The notes beneath the pieces are model-generated. The model did not search any database, was not told the origin of the DNA, and was given only the letters and a program-made list of their open reading frames with translations. DNA of 42,531 bases from a virus, in the IMG/VR virus record IMGVR_UViG_3300009503_000008, positions 1 through 42,531 of that record; one strand, written 5' to 3'. Within the stretch, counting starts at the first letter, position 1. Every line of letters begins with the position of its first letter. Below are positions 2,061-19,703 of this stretch, piece by piece. A program made the position numbers and the translations under genes.

Positions 2061-2501
2061 TCACCGATTGCCCGGCTTCCCCGCCGGCGGCTCCTCCAAC
2101 GTCCAGTCCGGGGCCACTGGGTACTTCTCGGGCCTGTCTCTTCCCGCGGCGCAACGGCAGCGGTAGACGTACTGGTACACCTCGTGCCGGAACTCGTCCC
2201 GCCCGGAGCGGCCCGCGATCACGATGCCATTGATACACCGGCCACAGCCCCTATTGTGCCGTACCGATGGTGATATGCCGCCTGGGTTCATCTCGGCCAG
2301 AACTTTGGCCCGGATATGGCTGATCAGGGGCCAGGAGCGGGAGTCTTGCTCCCGCATCACGGCACGCACGGCGTCCATGGCCGCGTCCGCCGGCAGATCC
2401 CCTATCTGGTCCCACCACGCGGCCCGTGTCGCGTCGGTCGGACGCAGCCCATAGATGGCCGCGATGTAGCTCACAATGCCATCGCTCTCATCGTGCGTCA
2501 T
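2061..2501 (-). CDS. Hypothetical protein, possibly a G39P-like helicase loader, with a C-terminal Zn knuckle
   Basis: IVSYIAAIYGLRPTDATRAAWWDQIGDLPADAAMDAVRAV resembles the N-domain pattern of SPP1 G39P-type loaders (from memory). CGRC...CRC follows. It sits directly downstream of the replisome organizer. Confidence 0.45.
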   Translation of the reverse strand: MTHDESDGIVSYIAAIYGLRPTDATRAAWWDQIGDLPADAAMDAVRAVMREQDSRSWPLISHIRAKVLAEMNPGGISPSVRHNRGCGRCINGIVIAGRSGRDEFRHEVYQYVYRCRCAAGRDRPEKYPVAPDWTLEEPPAGKPGNR

Positions 2502-3523
2502 GGATCAGCACCTCGTTTTCGGTTTTTGGCCCTCTCAAGCAGCTCCGTGAAGTCCGGAGCAGCAACCGGGGTTGGATCTCTAGCCCGTGCCTCGGCCTCG
2601 GCCTGCGGCCTGGTCCTGATCCCCGCGGCGTGCCAGCGCCGGAGGATGCCCTCGATGTAGTCCACCCGGCGCTTGCCCCGGTCGGCGGCGAGCTCGCAGG
2701 CATACACGATGGCTCCCATGTCCATGCCGCGGCCAAGCCATGCGGCCACCCTTTCCACCTGGTGGGCCGGCGGACAGAGGATGCCGGCCATGGATTCAAG
2801 TGCGTGATGGATGTTCATGGCGGGGTCTGGGGCAGGCGGCTCAACGGGGTCGGTGAGATGGTCGGGCGGCATGGCCGGGTCGGTGAGCACGGCCGGCATG
2901 GCGGTCGACTCTGCCAGTTGGTCCGTGGCCGGTTGGTTGGCGGGTTGGCGGGTTGGCGGGTTGGCGGGTTGACCGATTAACCGGTCGCCGCCGCCGGACG
3001 CCGCCGGTTGGTCCTCGCGTGCGTGCGCGCGTCCGGTTCCGGTATCCGTTTCGTTTCGTTTCGTTTCGTTTCGTTTCGTAGCTATGTCACGCGACGCGCT
3101 CGCAGTGCGCTCGTGATCATCACGTGATGCGCTCGCGGTGTCTCCCTTCCGCCGCGCTCTCCACTCCCGATTCCGCGCGGCGTTTTTCTCCCGCCGCTCG
3201 ATGAGCACCCCGGCGTACTCGTCCCAGTCGTGGACATGCAGGCCGCCGTCCTCGTCGTGCTCCAGGAAGCCCGCTGAACCGCCGGGGCCGCAGTCCACAA
3301 GGGCCTTGACAAACACCTCTGGGTCGCCGTCCCATGCCCCGGCATCGGCTATATCCTCGACGGAGTAACGGCTGAGGTCTCCGTCCTGGGCGAAGTCCAG
3401 GCACCAACACCAGAGGTGACAGAGATGGCCAACGGCGGCTACCTCCGACACGTCTAGGAGCCGCGCCAACCGTTTGGTCTTGGGGTGATGTCTCAGGGTT
3501 TGGTCAATCCTGATCCAAGCCAC
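2498..3523 (-). CDS. Replisome organizer / replication initiator with a C-terminal DnaD-like domain
   Basis: The N-terminal phage replisome-organizer-like region is MAWIRIDQTLRHHPKTKRLARLL...HLWCWCLDFA. The C-terminus, AIVYACELAADRGKRRVDYIEGILRRWHAAGIRT, fits the DnaD/DnaB_2 domain motif (Yi.gIL..W...gi.t). A low-complexity linker carries DNA tandem repeats. Confidence 0.8.
   Translation of the reverse strand: MAWIRIDQTLRHHPKTKRLARLLDVSEVAAVGHLCHLWCWCLDFAQDGDLSRYSVEDIADAGAWDGDPEVFVKALVDCGPGGSAGFLEHDEDGGLHVHDWDEYAGVLIERREKNAARNREWRARRKGDTASASRDDHERTASASRDIATKRNETKRNETDTGTGRAHAREDQPAASGGGDRLIGQPANPPTRQPANQPATDQLAESTAMPAVLTDPAMPPDHLTDPVEPPAPDPAMNIHHALESMAGILCPPAHQVERVAAWLGRGMDMGAIVYACELAADRGKRRVDYIEGILRRWHAAGIRTRPQAEAEARARDPTPVAAPDFTELLERAKNRKRGADP
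2937..2968. repeat. 8-bp tandem repeat ttggcggg x4 inside the organizer linker
   Basis: Read directly: ttggcggg at 2937, 2945, 2953 and 2961, plus flanking partial copies. It encodes QPANPPTRQPANQPA. Confidence 0.9.
3047..3076. repeat. 5-bp tandem repeat cgttt x6 inside the organizer linker
   Basis: Read directly: cgttt x6 (3047-3076). It encodes KRNETKRNET on the minus strand. Confidence 0.9.
3087..3140. repeat. Two 21-bp imperfect direct repeats flanking an 11-bp palindrome
   Basis: tcacgcgacgcgctcgcagtg (3087-3107) and tcacgtgatgcgctcgcggtg (3120-3140) match at 18/21. The palindrome gtgatcatcac lies at 3113-3123. Confidence 0.75.
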
Positions 3524-4027: not shown

Positions 4028-4387
4028 TTACCTTGTCCGTTCATCCGTCTTGGCGACGGCATCCACGATGTCGTCGCCGCTCCAGGGCGTCTTTCTTCTG
4101 GCCCAGCAAACCCCCAGCATCAACCGGCCGAAGTAAACCTCCCTAACCCGCAACTTCGCGAGTTCCCGCCGGTTGAACCAAACCGGGGGCCTGTCGCCCG
4201 GATGGTCCTTGTACCAAAAATCCCCTTTCCGGGTGGCCCAGGCCAGCCCGATGGCGGCCTTGGGCGCTATTTTGGTGAACCACCATATCGAGTCTGGCTT
4301 GGTTGTCATGAGAAACCTCTTACCACAAAAGATAAAGATTGCCTTGCTGACGTTCGGTTCCTCAGAAGTGGCGGTCATGGTGTCCAT
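4028..4387 (-). CDS. Hypothetical protein (119 aa)
   Basis: Complete ORF, co-oriented with its neighbours. Its start overlaps the MTase stop, and its composition is protein-like. Confidence 0.6.
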   Translation of the reverse strand: MDTMTATSEEPNVSKAIFIFCGKRFLMTTKPDSIWWFTKIAPKAAIGLAWATRKGDFWYKDHPGDRPPVWFNRRELAKLRVREVYFGRLMLGVCWARRKTPWSGDDIVDAVAKTDERTR

Positions 4388-6423
4388 GGGATCATCCCCT
4401 CCGCTGCCAGAATCGCCATGCCGATCTCCCTCACCACCTGCGGGACCACGGCGTTACCGAGGGCTTGCAATTTCTGCCGCCGGAAGGGTGCCTTGCCAGC
4501 CGCAAGCCTCGGCGGCTCCCAGTGATATTGGTCGCACCCTGCGGGTGCGGGCCATCGATGTTCAGCCAGCCGGGAGGATAGCCCATCAGACAACACACCC
4601 AGTCCGGGTTGAGGGTGCCTTTTACCACGTTTGGCAATTGATCCGGCATATTCCTGTTTTTGTTCGGACCCCGGTAATCTCTTGCCGCAGGCGTGGGCCA
4701 CATCTTCGCATGGGCCACCGCCCCCGGCAGTGCATAATTCCCCGCCGAATCCCGCTGGTTCGGCCCTCCGTGATCCCCGTCCGATGTCCTGGGCGTGGGC
4801 CACATCTTCGCCATCTGCTCCAGTGTCGGGCCGAAACCTTGACCGCTGTATCCATCTATCTTTTTCGCTCTCGGCGTGGGCCAAAATCCAGACCCGATCC
4901 CTTCTGTGCGGGGTGCCGACGGCACAAGCCGGTATAACAAACGCCGCTGTTTTGTAGCCTTCACTTTCCAGGTCAGATAGCACATTGTCGAGTGCCATGC
5001 TGATGATTCCAACAACGTTTTCACCAAGCACCCAATGCGGCCTGACTTCCTTGACAACTCTAAGCATTTCAGGCCAGAGGTAACGGTCATCCTCTTTGCC
5101 TCTTCGCTTCCCGGCGCAGGAGAATGGCTGGCAGTTATGGACAATTGCTCCATCCGCAATATAACTCTCATCCCCCTCAACGGCGATATTGTAAACAGTA
5201 CCTATGCCGCATGGTTCTACTTTTCGTACCAATTTCCAACCATATAGCCCTTCTACATATGCGGAACGATTCCGTGATGGGATACATACAGCGTAAAAAT
5301 CTCGTTGATTTACGACTCTTCCTTCAATTATCTTCTTTCTTGGCACTTTACATTTTCGCACGGATGCTACAACACCGTAAGCTCGTTGTGCCAATAATGC
5401 TGCCCCATATGCCAGAGACTTACTAACGGTAGTTGCCCGTACTTCATTGGTCTTCTTGTCTTTATATCCATCACCCGAAAGATACCCATCGAGAAAAGCG
5501 CGAGCTCTACTTTCATCCAAAGCTAACACGAACCCAGGAATCGTTTTACCTGTTGCCTTATGTCCAAATTGCTTCAAAAAATCACAGAAGACAGAGGAAG
5601 TAATTATAAACTTGACTACTGTCCTTTCCTTGCTTTTAGTACAATTGAATCCTGCTTCCTTAATGCGTTGCCCCAATAAATCGGCTTCGTTTTCCGCACA
5701 ACAAATAACCACCCGCTTGGCTCTACTGTTAATACGGCTCCCCCTTTCCCCTTGCGGTATTTTGCTCTTACGTTTGTAGTCTACAACCCAACCATCTGCT
5801 AAAAACCTACCAACCAACCACCAAAACTCAAGATTTCTATCGTCTTTATAAATTGGTGGCAAAGTCTGAGCAATAAACATTCCTTTTATTTCCTTAGCTT
5901 GTTGCCAATTAGGCTTGCTCCAAACACGCACACACTTTCTCTTACTGCCTTCGCGTGGCATAGATATCCGATAAGTCCTCGCAAGAAAAGGATGTTCAGG
6001 CGTTGTAATCACATCAACTCCTTGTGCTTTCACGTGAATCAATGGAGCATTATCCCGTTTCATTACTGCAGTTACAGGTCTCCAGTTGCCACGGTGTGTT
6101 AGGACTATGTCACCAACCTTCAGTGTTTCAATCAGCTTGTATCCTTCCCAAGTTAAAACCATAGTTCCTTGAGCAAAACATGGAAACCCTCCGCAAACAA
6201 CGTCAATTGCTCCACTTTCAATACCTGCTTCCTCCAGACTCTGCTTTGTCAACCCGAGAATATCGCCGAATATCGGCACTTCCGGCCAGTGGTACTGTAG
6301 CACTTGCTGACAGAACGGTTCTAGCTCGCAGAAGGCCACGGTTCCGAAGGCCCCCGTGGACTCAAGGCCCAGGGAAAAGCCGCCAATGCCGGAGAATAAG
6401 TCAAGGACCTTTAACTTTGGCAT
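4375..6423 (-). CDS. DNA (cytosine-5)-methyltransferase precursor containing an intein
   Basis: Motif I is LDLFSGIGGFSLGL. Motif IV is split as GGFP|C...HN|CQPFSCAGKRRG. Motif VI is GENV, motif VIII is GTPHRRDRVWILA and motif X is LGNAVVPQV. Total length is 682 aa, of which 349 aa are intein. Confidence 0.9.
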   Translation of the reverse strand: MPKLKVLDLFSGIGGFSLGLESTGAFGTVAFCELEPFCQQVLQYHWPEVPIFGDILGLTKQSLEEAGIESGAIDVVCGGFPCFAQGTMVLTWEGYKLIETLKVGDIVLTHRGNWRPVTAVMKRDNAPLIHVKAQGVDVITTPEHPFLARTYRISMPREGSKRKCVRVWSKPNWQQAKEIKGMFIAQTLPPIYKDDRNLEFWWLVGRFLADGWVVDYKRKSKIPQGERGSRINSRAKRVVICCAENEADLLGQRIKEAGFNCTKSKERTVVKFIITSSVFCDFLKQFGHKATGKTIPGFVLALDESRARAFLDGYLSGDGYKDKKTNEVRATTVSKSLAYGAALLAQRAYGVVASVRKCKVPRKKIIEGRVVNQRDFYAVCIPSRNRSAYVEGLYGWKLVRKVEPCGIGTVYNIAVEGDESYIADGAIVHNCQPFSCAGKRRGKEDDRYLWPEMLRVVKEVRPHWVLGENVVGIISMALDNVLSDLESEGYKTAAFVIPACAVGTPHRRDRVWILAHAESEKDRWIQRSRFRPDTGADGEDVAHAQDIGRGSRRAEPAGFGGELCTAGGGGPCEDVAHACGKRLPGSEQKQEYAGSIAKRGKRHPQPGLGVLSDGLSSRLAEHRWPAPAGCDQYHWEPPRLAAGKAPFRRQKLQALGNAVVPQVVREIGMAILAAEGMIPWTP
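5134..6180 (-). mobile_element. Class-1 intein with a LAGLIDADG homing endonuclease domain, inserted in motif IV of the MTase
   Basis: Block A is CFAQGTMVLTWEGYKLIETLKVGDIVL and block B is TTPEHPF. The LAGLIDADG motifs are WWLVGRFLADGWV and AFLDGYLSGDGY. Block F is VYNIAVEGDESYIA and block G is GAIVHN, followed by +1 Cys. The region is visibly lower in GC than its flanks. Confidence 0.9.
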
Positions 6424-7334
6424 TGGGTATTACCCCCCTTCGGCACCTGATCCCACTTCCGCCCGTCCAGTTCGGGCAGCTTAACCACCTTGCCATCGAC
6501 CCGCAGGGCTTTCAAAAAGAACGGCACGCCCGCTTCTTGGCACTGATCTCGCAGGTCTCGTACCCAGTTCACCTCCATGGGCCGCGCTCCGGGCCCGGTC
6601 TCGCAGCCGCAGATCACCCAGTCGAGGGTGTTGTATGTTCTGTTTCGTCCCGACCGTAGAATGGGATATGGCCGGAAGGGATCGCCGAAGAATCCTTCTC
6701 CGTAGTTAATTGGGACAGAAGACAGATCCACGGCCTCCAGCATCGGTTCGACCGAAACGAACCTCACTGCCGCCGGAATTTGGAGAAGTATCGGTATTCT
6801 CTCGTTGGCCCGCTGCTGATCTTCGGCAGTTACCCCTGCCCAACAATTTCTAAGCGGCATCGGGCCGATCTCTTTGGGCTGCGGAAGTCCAAATTCTCGC
6901 ACGGCCTGGGATTGAAACCACCCGACATGGAACTGGAAGTCTTCGTCTGTGAGCAACTTCAAGGCACGCTCTGGCCGCTTTGTCAAAACCATGAAAGTAT
7001 GCTGCCGTGCCAGGTCCATGATCGCCCATACCTTGGCAATGAATTTCTCGTCAACATCGTCGTGGAATAAGTCCCCCATGCTGCAAACAAACACCCGCCT
7101 CGGCTTCGTCCACCTCAACGGCTCGCTCAGCCTCTCCGGATGCAGCGTCACACGGAACGGCTCGTCCGCCGGGTAGCCGCATCGTCCGGCCAGACGCCGT
7201 GCCATGGTCCGTGCGTAGCAATGGGCGCACCCAGGGCTGACGGGCGTGCAGCCGGTGACGGGATTCCAGACCGTGTCGGCCCATTCAATGCGTGTTTTGG
7301 TCAATTCGATCCCTCCTAACTTCACTAGTCCCAA
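6411..7334 (-). CDS. Phage Gp37/Gp68 family protein (DUF5131)
   Basis: TRIEWADTVWNPVTGCTPVSPGCAHCYA is the family's N-terminal signature (IeWtd.tWNPv.GC..vS.GC..CYA). Confidence 0.85.
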   Translation of the reverse strand: MGLVKLGGIELTKTRIEWADTVWNPVTGCTPVSPGCAHCYARTMARRLAGRCGYPADEPFRVTLHPERLSEPLRWTKPRRVFVCSMGDLFHDDVDEKFIAKVWAIMDLARQHTFMVLTKRPERALKLLTDEDFQFHVGWFQSQAVREFGLPQPKEIGPMPLRNCWAGVTAEDQQRANERIPILLQIPAAVRFVSVEPMLEAVDLSSVPINYGEGFFGDPFRPYPILRSGRNRTYNTLDWVICGCETGPGARPMEVNWVRDLRDQCQEAGVPFFLKALRVDGKVVKLPELDGRKWDQVPKGGNTQCQS

Positions 7335-8372: not shown

Positions 8373-9314
8373 CTATATTTCCACACTCTCCATATTGTCC
8401 ATGGTACTATCGCTTGCGGTTATCTCGTTATCTTCTACCGGCGGCCAGACTTCCTCACCAGTTGCCAAGAGGTTAAGAAAGGTGATCAGATCCGATGCGT
8501 GCTCTTTGGTCAGCTCCTTCGAGGACGTAACGCCGTATCGGTAGCTAATGATGCCGTGCATGGTTTCTTTTGATAAGTCAAGCTCCCGACTCATGGCATA
8601 TATCTTCTTGAGCTGTACATCTGTCGCTTTTGTTTCACCGGTGTTATCCTTGGCGTTGTCCTTGTTGCCGGGAGTGGCCTCAACGACCGTTGCCGGGTGA
8701 ACGGGCCCTGACACCTGCACCGGGGCAGTGGGCAGACTCGACTCGTCGGCAGCCATTTCCTCGACCGAATAGAGGCTGCCAAATTCCTCCGGAAATGCCT
8801 CTCGTAACGCACCCACCAGAGCCACCTTCCTGATCTGCGATCCGGGCATCTTTGCCCACATGGCTTGCGGGCGTCCGTCCTTGAGCGGCATGTACTCGTC
8901 CAGGCTAACGGTCACTCGAAACGGATGGGACCGATCCTTCCGATATACTTCTGCCCATCCCCCGACCAGGCGCTCCGTTTTGAGGACTAGGGACCCTTCC
9001 CGCTCCTCGACTCCGGCATCGGAAACCACAAGGACACCCGCCCGAAAGCCGTCGAACTCCGGATGACGCGCAGCCCTCTTCGTGAACGTCTCTTTGCCAA
9101 CCACTATGGTGGCAGGGCTATTCCCGTATTTGATCAGGTAGACCTCCCGCAAGAACGGATTCAGCCCCTGATAACGGCACAAGTTGAGAAACATCATGAC
9201 CTCTTGATCCGTTACCGCGCCGTTGCCATTGACTAAGTAACGTTTCACGATTTCGGGACTCAACGCTACCTGTCCCGATGCTGTGTCAAACTTTACGAGT
9301 GCCTGATCCGCCAT
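8373..9314 (-). CDS. recT: RecT-family single-strand annealing recombinase
   Basis: LNLCRYQGLNPFLREVYLIKYGNSPATIVVGKETFTKRAARHPEFDG is the RecT core pattern (ldP...e.ylip......iGy.G...la). It lies next to a nuclease. Confidence 0.85.
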   Translation of the reverse strand: MADQALVKFDTASGQVALSPEIVKRYLVNGNGAVTDQEVMMFLNLCRYQGLNPFLREVYLIKYGNSPATIVVGKETFTKRAARHPEFDGFRAGVLVVSDAGVEEREGSLVLKTERLVGGWAEVYRKDRSHPFRVTVSLDEYMPLKDGRPQAMWAKMPGSQIRKVALVGALREAFPEEFGSLYSVEEMAADESSLPTAPVQVSGPVHPATVVEATPGNKDNAKDNTGETKATDVQLKKIYAMSRELDLSKETMHGIISYRYGVTSSKELTKEHASDLITFLNLLATGEEVWPPVEDNEITASDSTMDNMESVEI

Positions 9315-9326
9315 TTTATATACCTC

Positions 9327-10070
9327 CTAAAAATCTTGATGACATATCTTCCAATAACCGCAATGTTTTTCCGAACATAGGAAGTTATCCGGGTTAGGAT
9401 AGAACACTCCAGCGTTTATTGCGGCCACCACCCGCTCGGCGATGGCGGTAAACCGCTGTATGTCTCGTTCCGTCCGTTTCGCCTCCAGGGTGACGACCTT
9501 TGGGTTCCTTGCTTGCACCAAATAGTCAAGCCTCACTCCCGCCTCCGGTATGCCCATAAGGTACCGGTGCGCAAGGCTGTAAGCCGACAACTGGAGATTC
9601 TTGGCCGCGGAGTCCTCGCTCGGGGTTCTCGATGCCGTCTTGGTGTCGTGAATGTATCCTCTGTTGTCCAGCAGGTCGATAAACCCGAGCAAGGTGGTTC
9701 CCGCGAGGGGCACTTCCACCTTTTCCTCCACCAGGAATGGCTGTGTTTTGGGCGCAACCTCCTGGTGATAGAGTGCCGCCAGGGTTACCGCTTCATCCTT
9801 AACCTGGCCGGGCTTTTCGTCCGGCTCAAACTCAGTTAAATCTTGCTCCGCCTCAAAAGCGGCCGCGGTAACTTCTTTTACTTCATGCAGGGGCAGGTCC
9901 TGGTACGATTCAATCTTTTGCCTATAGTTGTGTTCCTGCCCCTTGTGCACCGCTCGTCCCTTCGTTAGCGCGGACTTCGGCGGTAGTACCATGCCGCATA
10001 CGTAGCGGTAATAGTAGGATGCTGGGCAGCGCAGGTACATATTGATCTGTGTCGGGGATATGTGATCCAT
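9327..10070 (-). CDS. PD-(D/E)XK nuclease, Cas4/RecB-like, with a Cys cluster
   Basis: YLRCP near the N-terminus, GFIDLLDNRGYIHDTK (D...D.K catalytic core) and a C-terminal CSEKHCGYWKIC cluster. This is the typical exonuclease partner of RecT. Confidence 0.8.
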   Translation of the reverse strand: MDHISPTQINMYLRCPASYYYRYVCGMVLPPKSALTKGRAVHKGQEHNYRQKIESYQDLPLHEVKEVTAAAFEAEQDLTEFEPDEKPGQVKDEAVTLAALYHQEVAPKTQPFLVEEKVEVPLAGTTLLGFIDLLDNRGYIHDTKTASRTPSEDSAAKNLQLSAYSLAHRYLMGIPEAGVRLDYLVQARNPKVVTLEAKRTERDIQRFTAIAERVVAAINAGVFYPNPDNFLCSEKHCGYWKICHQDF

Positions 10071-12588: not shown

Positions 12589-12726
12589 ATGAGTCACGGT
12601 CTCCTTGTTTTGGCGGGGGTACTACTGCTGGTGCTCCTGCCAATCGGCTTTTCTATCGACAAATCGGCCTATCAGCGCGGATTCCGCGATGGTCAGATGG
12701 ACGTGCTGAAACGCCGCCATGACTAG
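12589..12726 (+). CDS. Small membrane protein (45 aa)
   Basis: ATG at 12589 after GGGGAGGG. Translation is MSHGLLVLAGVLLLVLLPIGFSIDKSAYQRGFRDGQMDVLKRRHD. It overlaps the recombinase start. Confidence 0.35.
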   Translation: MSHGLLVLAGVLLLVLLPIGFSIDKSAYQRGFRDGQMDVLKRRHD

Positions 12727-14275
12727 GGCGCTTATCTATACCCGTTATTCCACGGACCGCCAACGTCAGGAGTCTACCTTGGCCCAGCTCCGTGCCTGCC
12801 GCGCCTACTGCGAGGTCCGGGGCTACACGATCGTCGCGGTCTTCTCCGATGAGGCCACCACCGGCACGACCGACGACAGACCGCAGTTTCAGGCGGCAAT
12901 GGACCTGGTGCGGTCGGGCGGGTGCGACGTGTTCGTGGTTCATAAACTCGACCGTTGGGCGAGGGATCGGATCGACGATGCGATCTATGACCGGGAGCTC
13001 CAGGCCGCCGGCGTGCGCCTGGAGTCCGTGGCGGAAGGCATAGACGAAAGCCGGCCGGCCGGCCATCTGATGCGCGGCGTGTTCACCGCGATAAACGATT
13101 TCTACTCCCGCAACCTCGCGGAGGAGTCGATGAAGGGACTCCGCGAAAATGCCTACCAGGGGCGGCACAACGGCGGCAAACCTCCCCTCGGCTATGACGT
13201 GGATAGGGATGGCCGCTACGTGGTCAACGAGCGGGAGGCGGCGGCCGTCCGCTTGATTTTCGCCATGGCGGCCGAGGGGCGGGGATACAGCGAAATAATT
13301 GACCGCATGACACGGGCCGGCTACACCACCAAGGTCGGCAAACCGTTCGGGAAGAATTCGATTCACGAACTTTTGACAAACGAGAAGTACATAGGGGTGT
13401 ATGTCTACAACCGCGTCCAGGAGCGCAAGCGGGGGCAGCCGCGTTCCAGCCGGCGGAGGAACCCGGAGGACAAAATCGTCCGGGTTCCGGGGGCGGTCCC
13501 GGCCATAATAGAGGAGGAGGTCTTTCGATCTGTGCAGGAAAAACTGGCCGCCCGCCGGTCCCACTCCGAGCGGGCCCGCAATGTCGCCAGGACGGTCTAC
13601 CTTTTGGCCGGCCTGGTCCGGTGCGGCGAATGCGGATCGGCCTACGTCGGCACGTCCACCGTCTGCCGGGGCAAACGCTACCACTACTACCAATGCGGCC
13701 GGCGTGCCCAGACGCGCGACTGCCGGGCCCGGCGAATCCCCAAGGAGGATCTGGAGGCCGTGGTGCTGGCCGAGGTGCGCCAGACGTTTTTCGGCCTGGA
13801 GGGGAATCGTCAAATAGTCGCCGACCTGGTGGAGATGTCCCGCCGGCAAAACGAGTCGGCCGGTCGGGAGATGGAGGAGGCCACGAAGGCGCTGGCGGCG
13901 GCCAAGCGTGAAAAGGAGAGACTGATCCAGGCCATCAAGGACGGCGTACCGGCCGCCGTGGTGAAGGATGAGCTGATGGCCGCCGACGCCAGGGTGACGG
14001 CCCTGCAGGGGGAAATCGAGAGGTTGTCGGCCGCCAAGGGGATCGAGATAACGCCTGGGATGGCGGAGAAATTCCTGCGGGAGCTGCGGAATGTGTATTC
14101 CGTAGTGCTGGAGGGAGGGGACGACCGCCGGGTGCAGGCGGCCATCCGGAGACTGGTGGGAGGGGTGGAGATCCAGGCGGATCGGGTCATCCTGGATCTC
14201 CGGATAAATTTGCAGGCTGATGGTGTCGGAGGCCCGACATGGGCGGCCTGCAAAGTGGTGACGACCAAAAAATAA
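12719..14275 (+). CDS. Large serine recombinase (phage integrase type)
   Basis: The resolvase catalytic domain is ALIYTRYSTDRQRQ...FVVHKLDRWARD. It is followed by a recombinase domain, the zinc ribbon CGECGSAY...YYQC and a C-terminal coiled coil. Length is 518 aa. Confidence 0.9.
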   Translation: MTRALIYTRYSTDRQRQESTLAQLRACRAYCEVRGYTIVAVFSDEATTGTTDDRPQFQAAMDLVRSGGCDVFVVHKLDRWARDRIDDAIYDRELQAAGVRLESVAEGIDESRPAGHLMRGVFTAINDFYSRNLAEESMKGLRENAYQGRHNGGKPPLGYDVDRDGRYVVNEREAAAVRLIFAMAAEGRGYSEIIDRMTRAGYTTKVGKPFGKNSIHELLTNEKYIGVYVYNRVQERKRGQPRSSRRRNPEDKIVRVPGAVPAIIEEEVFRSVQEKLAARRSHSERARNVARTVYLLAGLVRCGECGSAYVGTSTVCRGKRYHYYQCGRRAQTRDCRARRIPKEDLEAVVLAEVRQTFFGLEGNRQIVADLVEMSRRQNESAGREMEEATKALAAAKREKERLIQAIKDGVPAAVVKDELMAADARVTALQGEIERLSAAKGIEITPGMAEKFLRELRNVYSVVLEGGDDRRVQAAIRRLVGGVEIQADRVILDLRINLQADGVGGPTWAACKVVTTKK

Positions 14276-18842: not shown

Positions 18843-19703
18843 TTATATCTTTGGCAGATAACCCGCAATCCTATCTTCCGGGTGAACATGCGTATATTTC
18901 TGCGTAGTGAGCAGACTGGCATGTCCCAGCGTCTCCTGCACCACCCGTATATTGGCCCCGGCTTCCAGGGCGTCGGTCGCTCCGGTATGCCGCAGCCAGT
19001 GGGGAGATACGTTTTTCCCCAGGCCAGCCAGCTCCCCGGCCCGGCGGACTATCCTGTATCCCCACTGCCGCTTGAACGGCCAAACTAGGTCGTCCGGTTC
19101 GATGTTGGCGGGTCCGTACAGACGCACCATTTGCTGTACCAGGTGCAGAGGTATCTTCACCGTCCGGGTCTTATCTCCCTTCCCTCGAACGGTCATGAAG
19201 AACCATTCCCCCGTTTCGTCCGGCCTGATCTCCCGCCAGCGTACTGACACGCTCTCCTCCACGCGCAAGGTGGAGTAGTATAGAAACCTGATATACACCG
19301 CATCCCGGTGGTTATGACTCTCTGCGGCGGCTATCAGGTCTTCCAGCTCCCGCCGAGTCAGTACCCGCTCGGCGGTTTTGTCCTTGGGTGTCCGTATCTT
19401 CTGACCGGTCCAGGGATTGCTCTGCACTATTCCTTCCTTAATTAACTTATTCCACAGGCTGGACATGGCGGCCACCGTCAGCGCGACCGTGGCGTCCGAG
19501 TACCCGTCGGCGTAAAGCTTCTTGATAACCAGCATGGCCTCGTCGGCGGTCAGTGACGGTATCCGCCAAGTGGCAACGTTGATCCGGCGCAGGGCGGCGA
19601 GGTAGGTTTGGTTGGTGCTCCCGCTCGTGGGCGCGATCAGCCAGCGGTTGATCACCCGCTCGATGTCGTCAGGGTGTCTGCCGGACGGTACGATGTCAGA
19701 CAT
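18843..19703 (-). CDS. Tyrosine recombinase, XerC/XerD-sized (286 aa)
   Basis: An N-terminal SAM-like core-binding region is followed by the catalytic motifs R...HWLRHTGAT...LGHASLLTTQKYTHV. Confidence 0.9.
   Translation of the reverse strand: MSDIVPSGRHPDDIERVINRWLIAPTSGSTNQTYLAALRRINVATWRIPSLTADEAMLVIKKLYADGYSDATVALTVAAMSSLWNKLIKEGIVQSNPWTGQKIRTPKDKTAERVLTRRELEDLIAAAESHNHRDAVYIRFLYYSTLRVEESVSVRWREIRPDETGEWFFMTVRGKGDKTRTVKIPLHLVQQMVRLYGPANIEPDDLVWPFKRQWGYRIVRRAGELAGLGKNVSPHWLRHTGATDALEAGANIRVVQETLGHASLLTTQKYTHVHPEDRIAGYLPKI

Follow-up and report, generated by a model that had tools for sequence, protein, structure and literature searches.

A predicted intein directly before the catalytic cysteine of a prophage-like C5 DNA methyltransferase gene that holds a second, nested reading frame

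What enzyme can a DNA methyltransferase gene encode when 349 codons separate the catalytic cysteine from the residue that should precede it? We addressed this question for a C5 DNA methyltransferase gene in the IMG/VR virus record IMGVR_UViG_3300009503_000008, of which the whole stretch of 42,531 nucleotides was analysed (positions 1 to 42,531, called the window in the following). An earlier note on this DNA, made from the sequence alone, had described the insert as a LAGLIDADG intein lying between the proline and the catalytic cysteine of the PCQ motif and had suggested a recent invasion. The reading we favour, with a probability of roughly 0.85, is that a canonical intein interrupts the methyltransferase of a prophage in frame, and that the spliced chain would be complemented by a recognition protein translated separately from an open reading frame (ORF) nested in the same gene.

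The insert separates proline and cysteine of motif IV

The precursor and its parts are located as follows.

4375..6423, minus strand: precursor ORF of 682 codons plus stop, C5 DNA methyltransferase (alpha-like chain) split by the intein
6181..6423, minus strand: N-extein, 81 amino acids (aa), motif I to the first half of motif IV
6367-6402, minus strand: motif I (DLFSGIGGFSLG), in the N-extein
6181-6195, minus strand: first half of motif IV, CGGFP, in the N-extein
5134..6180, minus strand: intein, 349 aa, Cys1 to Asn349, G+C 42.8%
5131..5133, minus strand: codon of Cys+1, the first C-extein residue and the cysteine of motif IV (PCQ)
4378..5133, minus strand: C-extein, 252 aa
5098-5133, minus strand: second half of motif IV, in the C-extein
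5008-5031, minus strand: motif VI, ENV, in the C-extein
4876-4917, minus strand: motif VIII, HRRDR, in the C-extein
4432-4470, minus strand: motif X, GNAVVP, in the C-extein

In translation the junctions read ...IDVVCGGFP^CFAQGTMVL...ADGAIVHN^CQPFSCAGKRRG..., where a caret marks each junction. Residues 82-430 of the precursor form the insert, which is stop-free and in frame, starts with cysteine, ends with His-Asn and is flanked by Pro81 and by Cys431, the cysteine of motif IV. Excising it in silico yields 333 aa with an unbroken GGFPCQPFS, and motifs I (FxGxG), IV (PCQ), VI (ENV), VIII (RxR) and X (GNAVxP) are then all found in the main frame. The Pfam family PF00145 matches the excised sequence in one stretch with an E-value of 1.6e-44, compared to two stretches and an E-value of 2.7e-38 in the precursor. 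Moreover, three intein-free relatives (L006, L007 and L008) align through GGFP^CQPFS without any gap at the insertion point. The position given in the earlier note (5134-6180, 349 aa, between Pro and Cys of motif IV) was reproduced from the ORF translation, and its statement that removal of the insert restores a canonical GGFPCQPFS is borne out by the 333-aa sequence, the single PF00145 stretch and the gap-free relatives. It had also named Cys1 and His-Asn/Cys+1 as the bounds of the insert; we read AIVHN^C at the C-terminal end, and the residues concerned are invariant or nearly so in the homologues. In C5 methyltransferases the cysteine of motif IV is the nucleophile that attacks cytosine C6. 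From this established chemistry and from the position of the Pro/Cys pair in motif IV, the +1 residue of the intein is at the same time the catalytic cysteine of the methyltransferase, as the earlier note had proposed. Judged by these sequence features, whose agreement goes far past what chance would give, an intein with a predicted homing endonuclease is inserted directly before the catalytic cysteine of a prophage C5 methyltransferase.

Splicing blocks, endonuclease motifs and predicted fold of the intein

The residues expected of a splicing and homing element were found at the following positions (intein numbering).

6139..6180, minus strand: block A (CFAQGTMVLTWEGY), with the Cys1 codon at 6178-6180; C1 invariant
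5980..6012, minus strand: block B (VITTPEHPFLA) with Thr60 and His63; H63 invariant, T60 at least 90% conserved
5782..5823, minus strand: first LAGLIDADG motif (WWLVGRFLADGWVV) with the acidic residue Asp129
5458..5505, minus strand: second LAGLIDADG motif (ARAFLDGYLSGDGYKD); Asp237 invariant
5134..5202, minus strand: blocks F and G (GTVYNIAVEGDESYIADG AIVHN); His348-Asn349 invariant

Searching the insert against Pfam we observed Hint_2 in the N-terminal part, LAGLIDADG_3 (E 2.3e-10) together with Hom_end in the central part and the Intein_splicing end in the C-terminal part. Among solved proteins, the V-ATPase intein 7qsu is closest in sequence (2e-8), with PI-SceI next. Conservation was taken from alignments of 31 precursors and 46 inteins. 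Here Cys1, His63, Gly130, Asp237-Gly238 and His348-Asn349 are invariant, while Thr60, Asp129, Cys+1 and the Gln that follows it are conserved to at least 90%. The Thr-x-x-His of block B is TPEH, and the two LAGLIDADG helices read RFLAD129G and LSGD237G.

An AlphaFold2 model of the intein, built on the homologue alignment, has a mean predicted local distance difference test score (pLDDT) of 96.6 and a predicted template modelling score (pTM) of 0.92. The best Foldseek match of this model is the TliVMA intein (E 5e-19, TM-score 0.67), followed by PI-SceI, PI-PfuI, PhoVMA and PI-PkoII; the Hint fold is seen in the matches to TliVMA, PI-SceI and PI-PfuI at E-values of 5e-19 to 8e-15. With its central endonuclease domain alone the model also matches I-DmoI, at an E-value of about 5e-7 and a target TM-score of 0.61-0.67. 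By Pfam matches, key residues and predicted fold, blocks A, B, F and G and both LAGLIDADG motifs are all present, in agreement with the earlier note. In terms of its sequence the insert is a class 1 type intein in which a Hint splicing domain surrounds a LAGLIDADG endonuclease with two motifs, and nothing in that sequence suggests decay.

The same insertion site is widespread

Next, we asked how common this insertion site is. A search with the precursor returned 4692 relatives at E <= 1e-5, and the best 120 of them (36-52% identity) were inspected for junctions. At least one junction (GG(F)P^CF.AGT or VHN^CQPFS) was found at the same site in all 120, and in 116 of them both junctions could be parsed. 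A scan of IMG/VR for the junction pattern gave 356 viral contigs that encode a relative. The site is also occupied in the Nostoc sp. protein P0004, which is named 'DNA cytosine methyltransferase' at NCBI, in the Dmt protein of the P1-like Escherichia phage RCS47 (FO818745.1), where the junctions read ...VGGTP^CFTAGHMVL...AVVHN^CQAFS..., and at the motif IV site of the gut phage contigs MT835477 and MT835926. One relative at JGI carries the name 'site-specific DNA-cytosine methylase/intein/homing endonuclease'. When the gene was compared by megablast with 50 697 phage records, no match was obtained.

In the literature that we searched, no paper was found that explicitly places an intein at the PCQ motif; the nearest items concern inteins of N4/N6 methylases and a listing, in one line, of C-5 methylases as intein hosts. 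Going by the sequences in public data, the PCQ insertion site is not new, and it is abundant there though barely described in print. The intein of the window is, from its identity of at most 61% to any relative, a new and fairly divergent example of a widespread kind.

Base composition and the question of a recent invasion

The G+C content drops abruptly at 5134-6180. It is 42.8% in the intein compared to 53.5% and 59.3% in the two exteins and 57.7% in the window. For better evaluation of this gap we compared 60 distinct related inteins from IMG/VR. In this group the difference between intein and extein averages -2.3 percentage points (range -11.5 to +9.5) and the difference between intein and locus averages 0.0, while the values for our intein, -15.1 against the extein and -14.9 against the locus, lie beyond both ranges of the 60 relatives. 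That the intein is lower in G+C than its host gene, as the earlier note had stated, is correct, and the gap is unusually large for the family.

Similarities of intein and extein are uncoupled. The most similar intein (60.7% identity) belongs to a protein whose extein is only about 45% identical, and the most similar extein (72%, motifs IV-VIII only) goes along with an intein of about 45%; we conclude from this uncoupling that intein and host gene have different histories. The closest intein-free genes have about 48-55% identity to the extein of the window. With regard to a recent invasion the evidence is therefore divided. A late acquisition is plausible from the composition, since the G+C deficit fits an element that has not yet reached the composition of its host. 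Counting against it, the databases hold neither a close intein donor nor a close intein-free allele that could represent a recently empty site.

Proposed splicing and homing

According to the mechanism that we propose, the whole precursor would be translated first. An N-S acyl shift at Cys1 would form a thioester, the thiol of Cys+1 would take over the N-extein by trans-thioesterification, cyclisation of Asn349 would free the intein, and an S-N shift would finally join Pro81 to the cysteine and thereby GGFP to CQPFS. The catalytic loop would be rebuilt only by this splicing, after which the cysteine would be free to attack cytosine C6. Because 349 residues part the cysteine from the proline of the catalytic loop in the precursor, methyltransferase activity should need splicing, and it is reasonable to infer that this dependence is strict. 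The freed intein probably cuts intein-free alleles at the site coding for GGFP^CQ and is copied into them by repair, a homing cycle with which the uncoupled similarities and the wide spread of the insertion site are consistent.

The spliced chain lacks a recognition region

The earlier note had expected a 333-aa spliced product. This length was obtained, but the product does not amount to a complete canonical enzyme, and a candidate recognition region with a motif IX-like sequence was found instead in an ORF nested in the +1 frame. Of the 324 positions of the PF00145 profile, the match covers no more than 1-167. The main-frame sequence that links motif VIII to motif X is of low complexity and contains two DVAHA repeats, and neither an in-frame target-recognition region nor motif IX was found in it. 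Single-chain relatives (P0032, P0051, P0060, P0062 and P0115) carry WPTP modules, the sequence LNPDWVEWLMGFPxGWT and GNAVVP in frame with motifs I-VIII, the LNPDW segment lying directly ahead of motif X. As a canonical C5 methyltransferase, the 333-aa product is incomplete by its motif content. Reading the main-frame DVAHA one base later gives MWPTP, and in this +1 frame we observed the following features.

4431..5180, minus strand: nested ORF in the +1 frame, 249 codons at longest, candidate beta or target-recognition subunit
5088-5090, minus strand: likeliest start of the nested ORF, an ATG after GAAGAGG
4872-4886, 4779-4805 and 4677-4703, minus strand: three (F/M)WPTP modules of the nested ORF
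4563-4613, minus strand: motif IX-like sequence LNPDWVCCLMGYPPGWL of the nested ORF

The nested frame is probably a gene

The +1 ORF would probably be translated separately and would probably join the spliced chain in a two-polypeptide enzyme, as in M.EcoHK31I. The strongest competing explanation, which we nevertheless consider unlikely, accepts the intein and treats the +1 ORF as a non-gene, a remnant or by-product of a recognition region that an ancestor encoded in frame; the 333-aa chain would then work alone, or the enzyme would be inactive. Shuffling synonymous codons of the main frame gave a mean of 4.5 +1 stops in the C-extein, and only 0.2% of the shuffles had none. In all of 14 diverged related loci the +1 frame is free of stops, both in the stretch from motif IV to motif VIII and in the middle stretch, where 0.6-4 stops are expected per stretch; the +2 frame of the same loci has 1-12 stops. 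The product of the per-locus probabilities of zero stops is about 1e-19 for each stretch, as calculated for 14 loci that are not fully independent. The +1 frame is also open in genomes of 44-50% G+C. These numbers are difficult to reconcile with a non-gene, and the same applies to the missing motif IX and the missing structured recognition region of the main frame.

Further evidence against a non-gene comes from loci in which the two frames differ in their fate. In L007 (NCBI GCA_965338185.1, 2040-3400) the +1 ORF is intact while the main frame lacks motif I, with the rest intact, and in L010 the +1 ORF is intact although the main frame contains a stop. At L008/L009 (2501-3232) the gene caller took the +1 ORF, and in L008 it dropped the longer and intact methyltransferase frame in favour of it. 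An exhaustive search with the +1 product yielded 12 095 representative relatives. The sampled ones have either no name or that of 'hypothetical protein'; they are encoded in the +1 frame of C5 methyltransferase genes, over a stretch that runs from motif IV through the recognition region to its end. In the cultured Paenibacillus larvae phage Leyra both LEYRA_61 and LEYRA_62, the latter nested in the +1 frame, are annotated as 'DNA-cytosine methyltransferase'. A counterpart of the ATG at 5088-5090 with a Shine-Dalgarno-like sequence was found in 9 of the 11 intein-bearing loci usable for this comparison, from which the rows L012-L015 and L023 were left out. A start at 5090 places the nested gene wholly downstream of the intein, and the insertion would for this reason leave it undisturbed.

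Several observations weigh against the reading that we favour, and most of them can be claimed by the non-gene explanation. AlphaFold2 performed poorly on the +1 product alone (pLDDT 58.9, pTM 0.23), and the confident parts are confined to a hairpin (residues 68-88) and the LNPDW helix. The +1-family profile has no match among solved structures, the +1 product has no match in Pfam, and its database relatives carry the name 'hypothetical' throughout. In an hhalign comparison LNPDWVCCLMGYPPGW of the +1 product falls on the canonical motif IX of P0039, a weak match with an E-value of 0.0064. The family profile matches single-chain relatives only from about position 98, so the first approximately 97 residues have no in-frame counterpart there; the other frame may be what keeps their sequence conserved, and a real domain in this part is not supported. 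Nor does the likeliest start hold throughout: a counterpart of the ATG at 5088-5090 is absent in L003, L005 and L006, and it was discarded as a universal start. The alpha chain of M.EcoHK31I is reported to hold the recognition domain, while the WPTP modules of the window lie in the nested frame. Finally, splicing, endonuclease cutting and methylation at this locus are all processes that we infer.

Taken together, we consider it rather likely that the window encodes a two-chain enzyme made of a spliced catalytic chain and a recognition chain from the nested frame; the conserved open frame and its motifs suggest that the +1 ORF probably encodes the DNA-recognition subunit. Two side observations concern relatives. 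The main frame of L007 starts with ...GQCEWADYP, right after a Dam gene. In L005 (6001-8043) the C-extein has 57% G+C, the locus 48.5% and the intein 42%, and the dual-coded part is compositionally distinct from its surroundings.

Remaining alternatives

A decayed intein that neither splices nor homes, which would make the gene in effect a pseudogene, appears improbable to us. The homing-cycle model does predict many inteins with dead endonucleases. In our case, however, the ORF is intact, no splicing residue and neither of the LAGLIDADG aspartates is missing, the family conserves these residues fully or almost fully, the structure model is very confident, and the motifs of the host protein are all intact.

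We assign still less weight to a single chain for which ribosomes would shift frame twice, by +1 once motif VIII is passed and by -1 ahead of motif X, and would thereby stitch in the recognition region from the +1 frame. Single-chain relatives show exactly this order of motifs in one frame. Against this explanation, the +1 frame is open from motif IV on and not only past motif VIII, the main frame is open through the middle region in every locus that we saw, and no shared slippery sequence was seen at either boundary. We know of no precedent for two programmed shifts in one gene. With both frames open over the whole overlap, the double frameshift was set aside; the M.EcoHK31I model and the annotation in Leyra offer the simpler account.

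The abrupt drop in G+C might point to a chimeric assembly or to an endonuclease gene that stands on its own, but either explanation of the low-G+C block deserves hardly any credence. The insert is stop-free, its boundaries are in frame and coincide exactly with Cys1 and HN^C, and the endonuclease is flanked by a Hint domain. The identical architecture recurs, moreover, in cultured E. coli phages and in independent assemblies that number in the hundreds.

A stop-proline insert at the same site in intein-free relatives

Intein-free genes with a conserved insert of six bases, placed exactly at the Pro^Cys boundary, were seen in at least eight viral loci of the clade and in several of its protein clusters. 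The sequence is CCN TGA CCN TGC CAG, corresponding to GG(F/Y)P-stop-P-CQ, and downstream of it ENV, RxR and GNAV are intact over 168-298 codons. The loci are as follows.

L010/L011, about 2545-2562: stop-Pro insert
L097, L099, L101, L103, L107, L111 and L117 (IMG/VR): stop-Pro insert

The second proline codon of the insert varies only at its third base, and the same changes alter the residue of the +1 frame (H, L or P). This pattern argues for reading of the codon in the main frame. Ribosomes may hop by +6 from the first proline codon to the second, by which GGFPCQ would be restored; the insert may otherwise be explained by readthrough, by a true split gene or by a prfB-like +1 shift (GGAGGN-NNN-CCU-UGA-C). 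One could combine these elements into a three-layered gene comprising a spliced catalytic chain, a mobile endonuclease and a +1 recognition subunit, in which splicing would delay or control phage self-methylation, and in which the insert of the relatives, passed by a +6 hop, spoils the endonuclease target and keeps the enzyme. We regard this combination as doubtful, a speculation rather than a working model.

Two further oddities were recognized among the relatives. In L097, L103, L111 and L117 a sequence similar to an HNH endonuclease (...IQAHHCDY...WLCQKCHHEWHK...) lies in frame between motifs III and IV, about 190 codons upstream of the GGFP-stop site, and represents a second kind of mobile element in the gene family. 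In L003 (MT835926.1, a human gut phage contig) an in-frame TGA at 4421-4423 occupies the position of a Trp conserved in the relatives (GITFSQ-stop-REKSIKGYGNAIVPQ); it could be read as Trp in this phage, or the gene could be broken.

Genomic setting

Around the methyltransferase, further phage early genes follow one another on the minus strand. The neighbouring and more distant genes are listed below.

2498-3523, minus strand: replication initiator
6411-7334, minus strand: phrog_2045 protein, overlapping the start of the methyltransferase
8373-9314, minus strand: RecT
9327-10070, minus strand: exonuclease
12719-14275: serine integrase
18843-19703: tyrosine integrase

RecT adjoins the homologous gene in L005 too. 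To the right of about 14 kb the ORFs have almost no Pfam or PHROG matches, and no tRNA genes were found in the window. The window looks like a prophage or an integrative element of a host with about 58% G+C.

Significance

Taken alone, the intein is of modest interest, being one more divergent member of a large family that targets the catalytic loop of phage C5 methyltransferases. The double role of the +1 residue, which is also the nucleophile of the enzyme, makes it a clean natural case for activity gated by splicing. The added interest of the locus lies in its layered coding, and in practice the nested frame matters more than the intein. Thousands of 'hypothetical proteins' in the databases seem to correspond to the +1 frame of methyltransferase genes. 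This frame is sometimes chosen by gene callers in place of the methyltransferase, and those methyltransferases of the clade that are annotated as single chains lack a recognition domain. If the two-chain reading is true, prediction of specificity, REBASE-style annotation and heterologous expression all need both frames.

Comparison with known systems

The closest systems are the inteins at the same site, namely those of RCS47 Dmt, MT835477, MT835926, the Nostoc protein P0004 and the 356 IMG/VR contigs. They share the insertion point, GG(F/T)P^CF.AGT...VHN^CQ, and the type of LAGLIDADG endonuclease, and they belong to the same family as the window intein, with 33-61% identity. None of them is closer to the window than 61% for the intein or about 50% for the whole protein, and compared to them the window intein has an unusually large G+C deficit. 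The host methyltransferase of P1-like phages differs further from that of the window in having a canonical in-frame motif IX and in being fused to a Dam domain.

Among the solved inteins, TliVMA (7qsu/7qss), PI-SceI (1vde, 1ef0, 1lws), PI-PfuI (1dq3) and PhoVMA (7qst) have the same layout of a Hint domain and a LAGLIDADG endonuclease with two motifs. Their Foldseek matches to the window intein range from E 5e-19 to 1e-13 with TM-scores of 0.50-0.67, and their residues in blocks A, B, F and G match, although the sequence identity is only 13-18%. The window intein is shorter than PI-SceI and PI-PfuI, and its host is a methyltransferase, whereas the solved inteins reside in V-ATPase or ribonucleotide reductase.

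A phage DNA methylase is also the host of the intein in gp60 of mycobacteriophage Pacc40, which has 35% identity to the window intein over its full length. This enzyme is an N4/N6 methylase and its intein lies at another site, ..QMHV^C...VVKN^CPLQF. Methylase inteins of the Pacc40 type were described by Kelley et al. 2016 and Gosselin et al. 2023, and those of actinophage N4/N6 methylases include DNMT-1/2 (Kelley et al. 2016, PMC5050341) and the Dorothy_75 family (PMC9957025); C-5 methylases are listed among the actinophage intein hosts in a 2025 preprint (bioRxiv 10.1101/2025.01.02.630785). Like the family of the window, the actinophage methylase inteins show a patchy distribution and uncoupled histories of intein and extein. 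On the side of annotation, we observed that RefSeq (e.g. NC_011287.1, Pacc40 gene 60) names the intein-bearing N4/N6 methylase 'anaerobic ribonucleoside reductase large subunit', where GenBank has 'DNA methylase'; the reductase name was probably carried over via intein similarity.

With respect to the nested frame, the likeness to M.EcoHK31I is drawn from its published description (PMC2836561). There the beta chain is coded entirely inside the alpha gene in another frame, motifs I-VIII and X are located in alpha and motif IX in beta, and both chains are required (PMC2836561); the window likewise has a second ORF in another frame inside the main methyltransferase gene. The Leyra pair is a direct homologue of the two frames of the window, the main chains being 48% identical and the nested chains 49%. 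Unlike M.EcoHK31I and the Leyra entry, the main chain of the window additionally carries an intein, just upstream of the likely start of the nested ORF.

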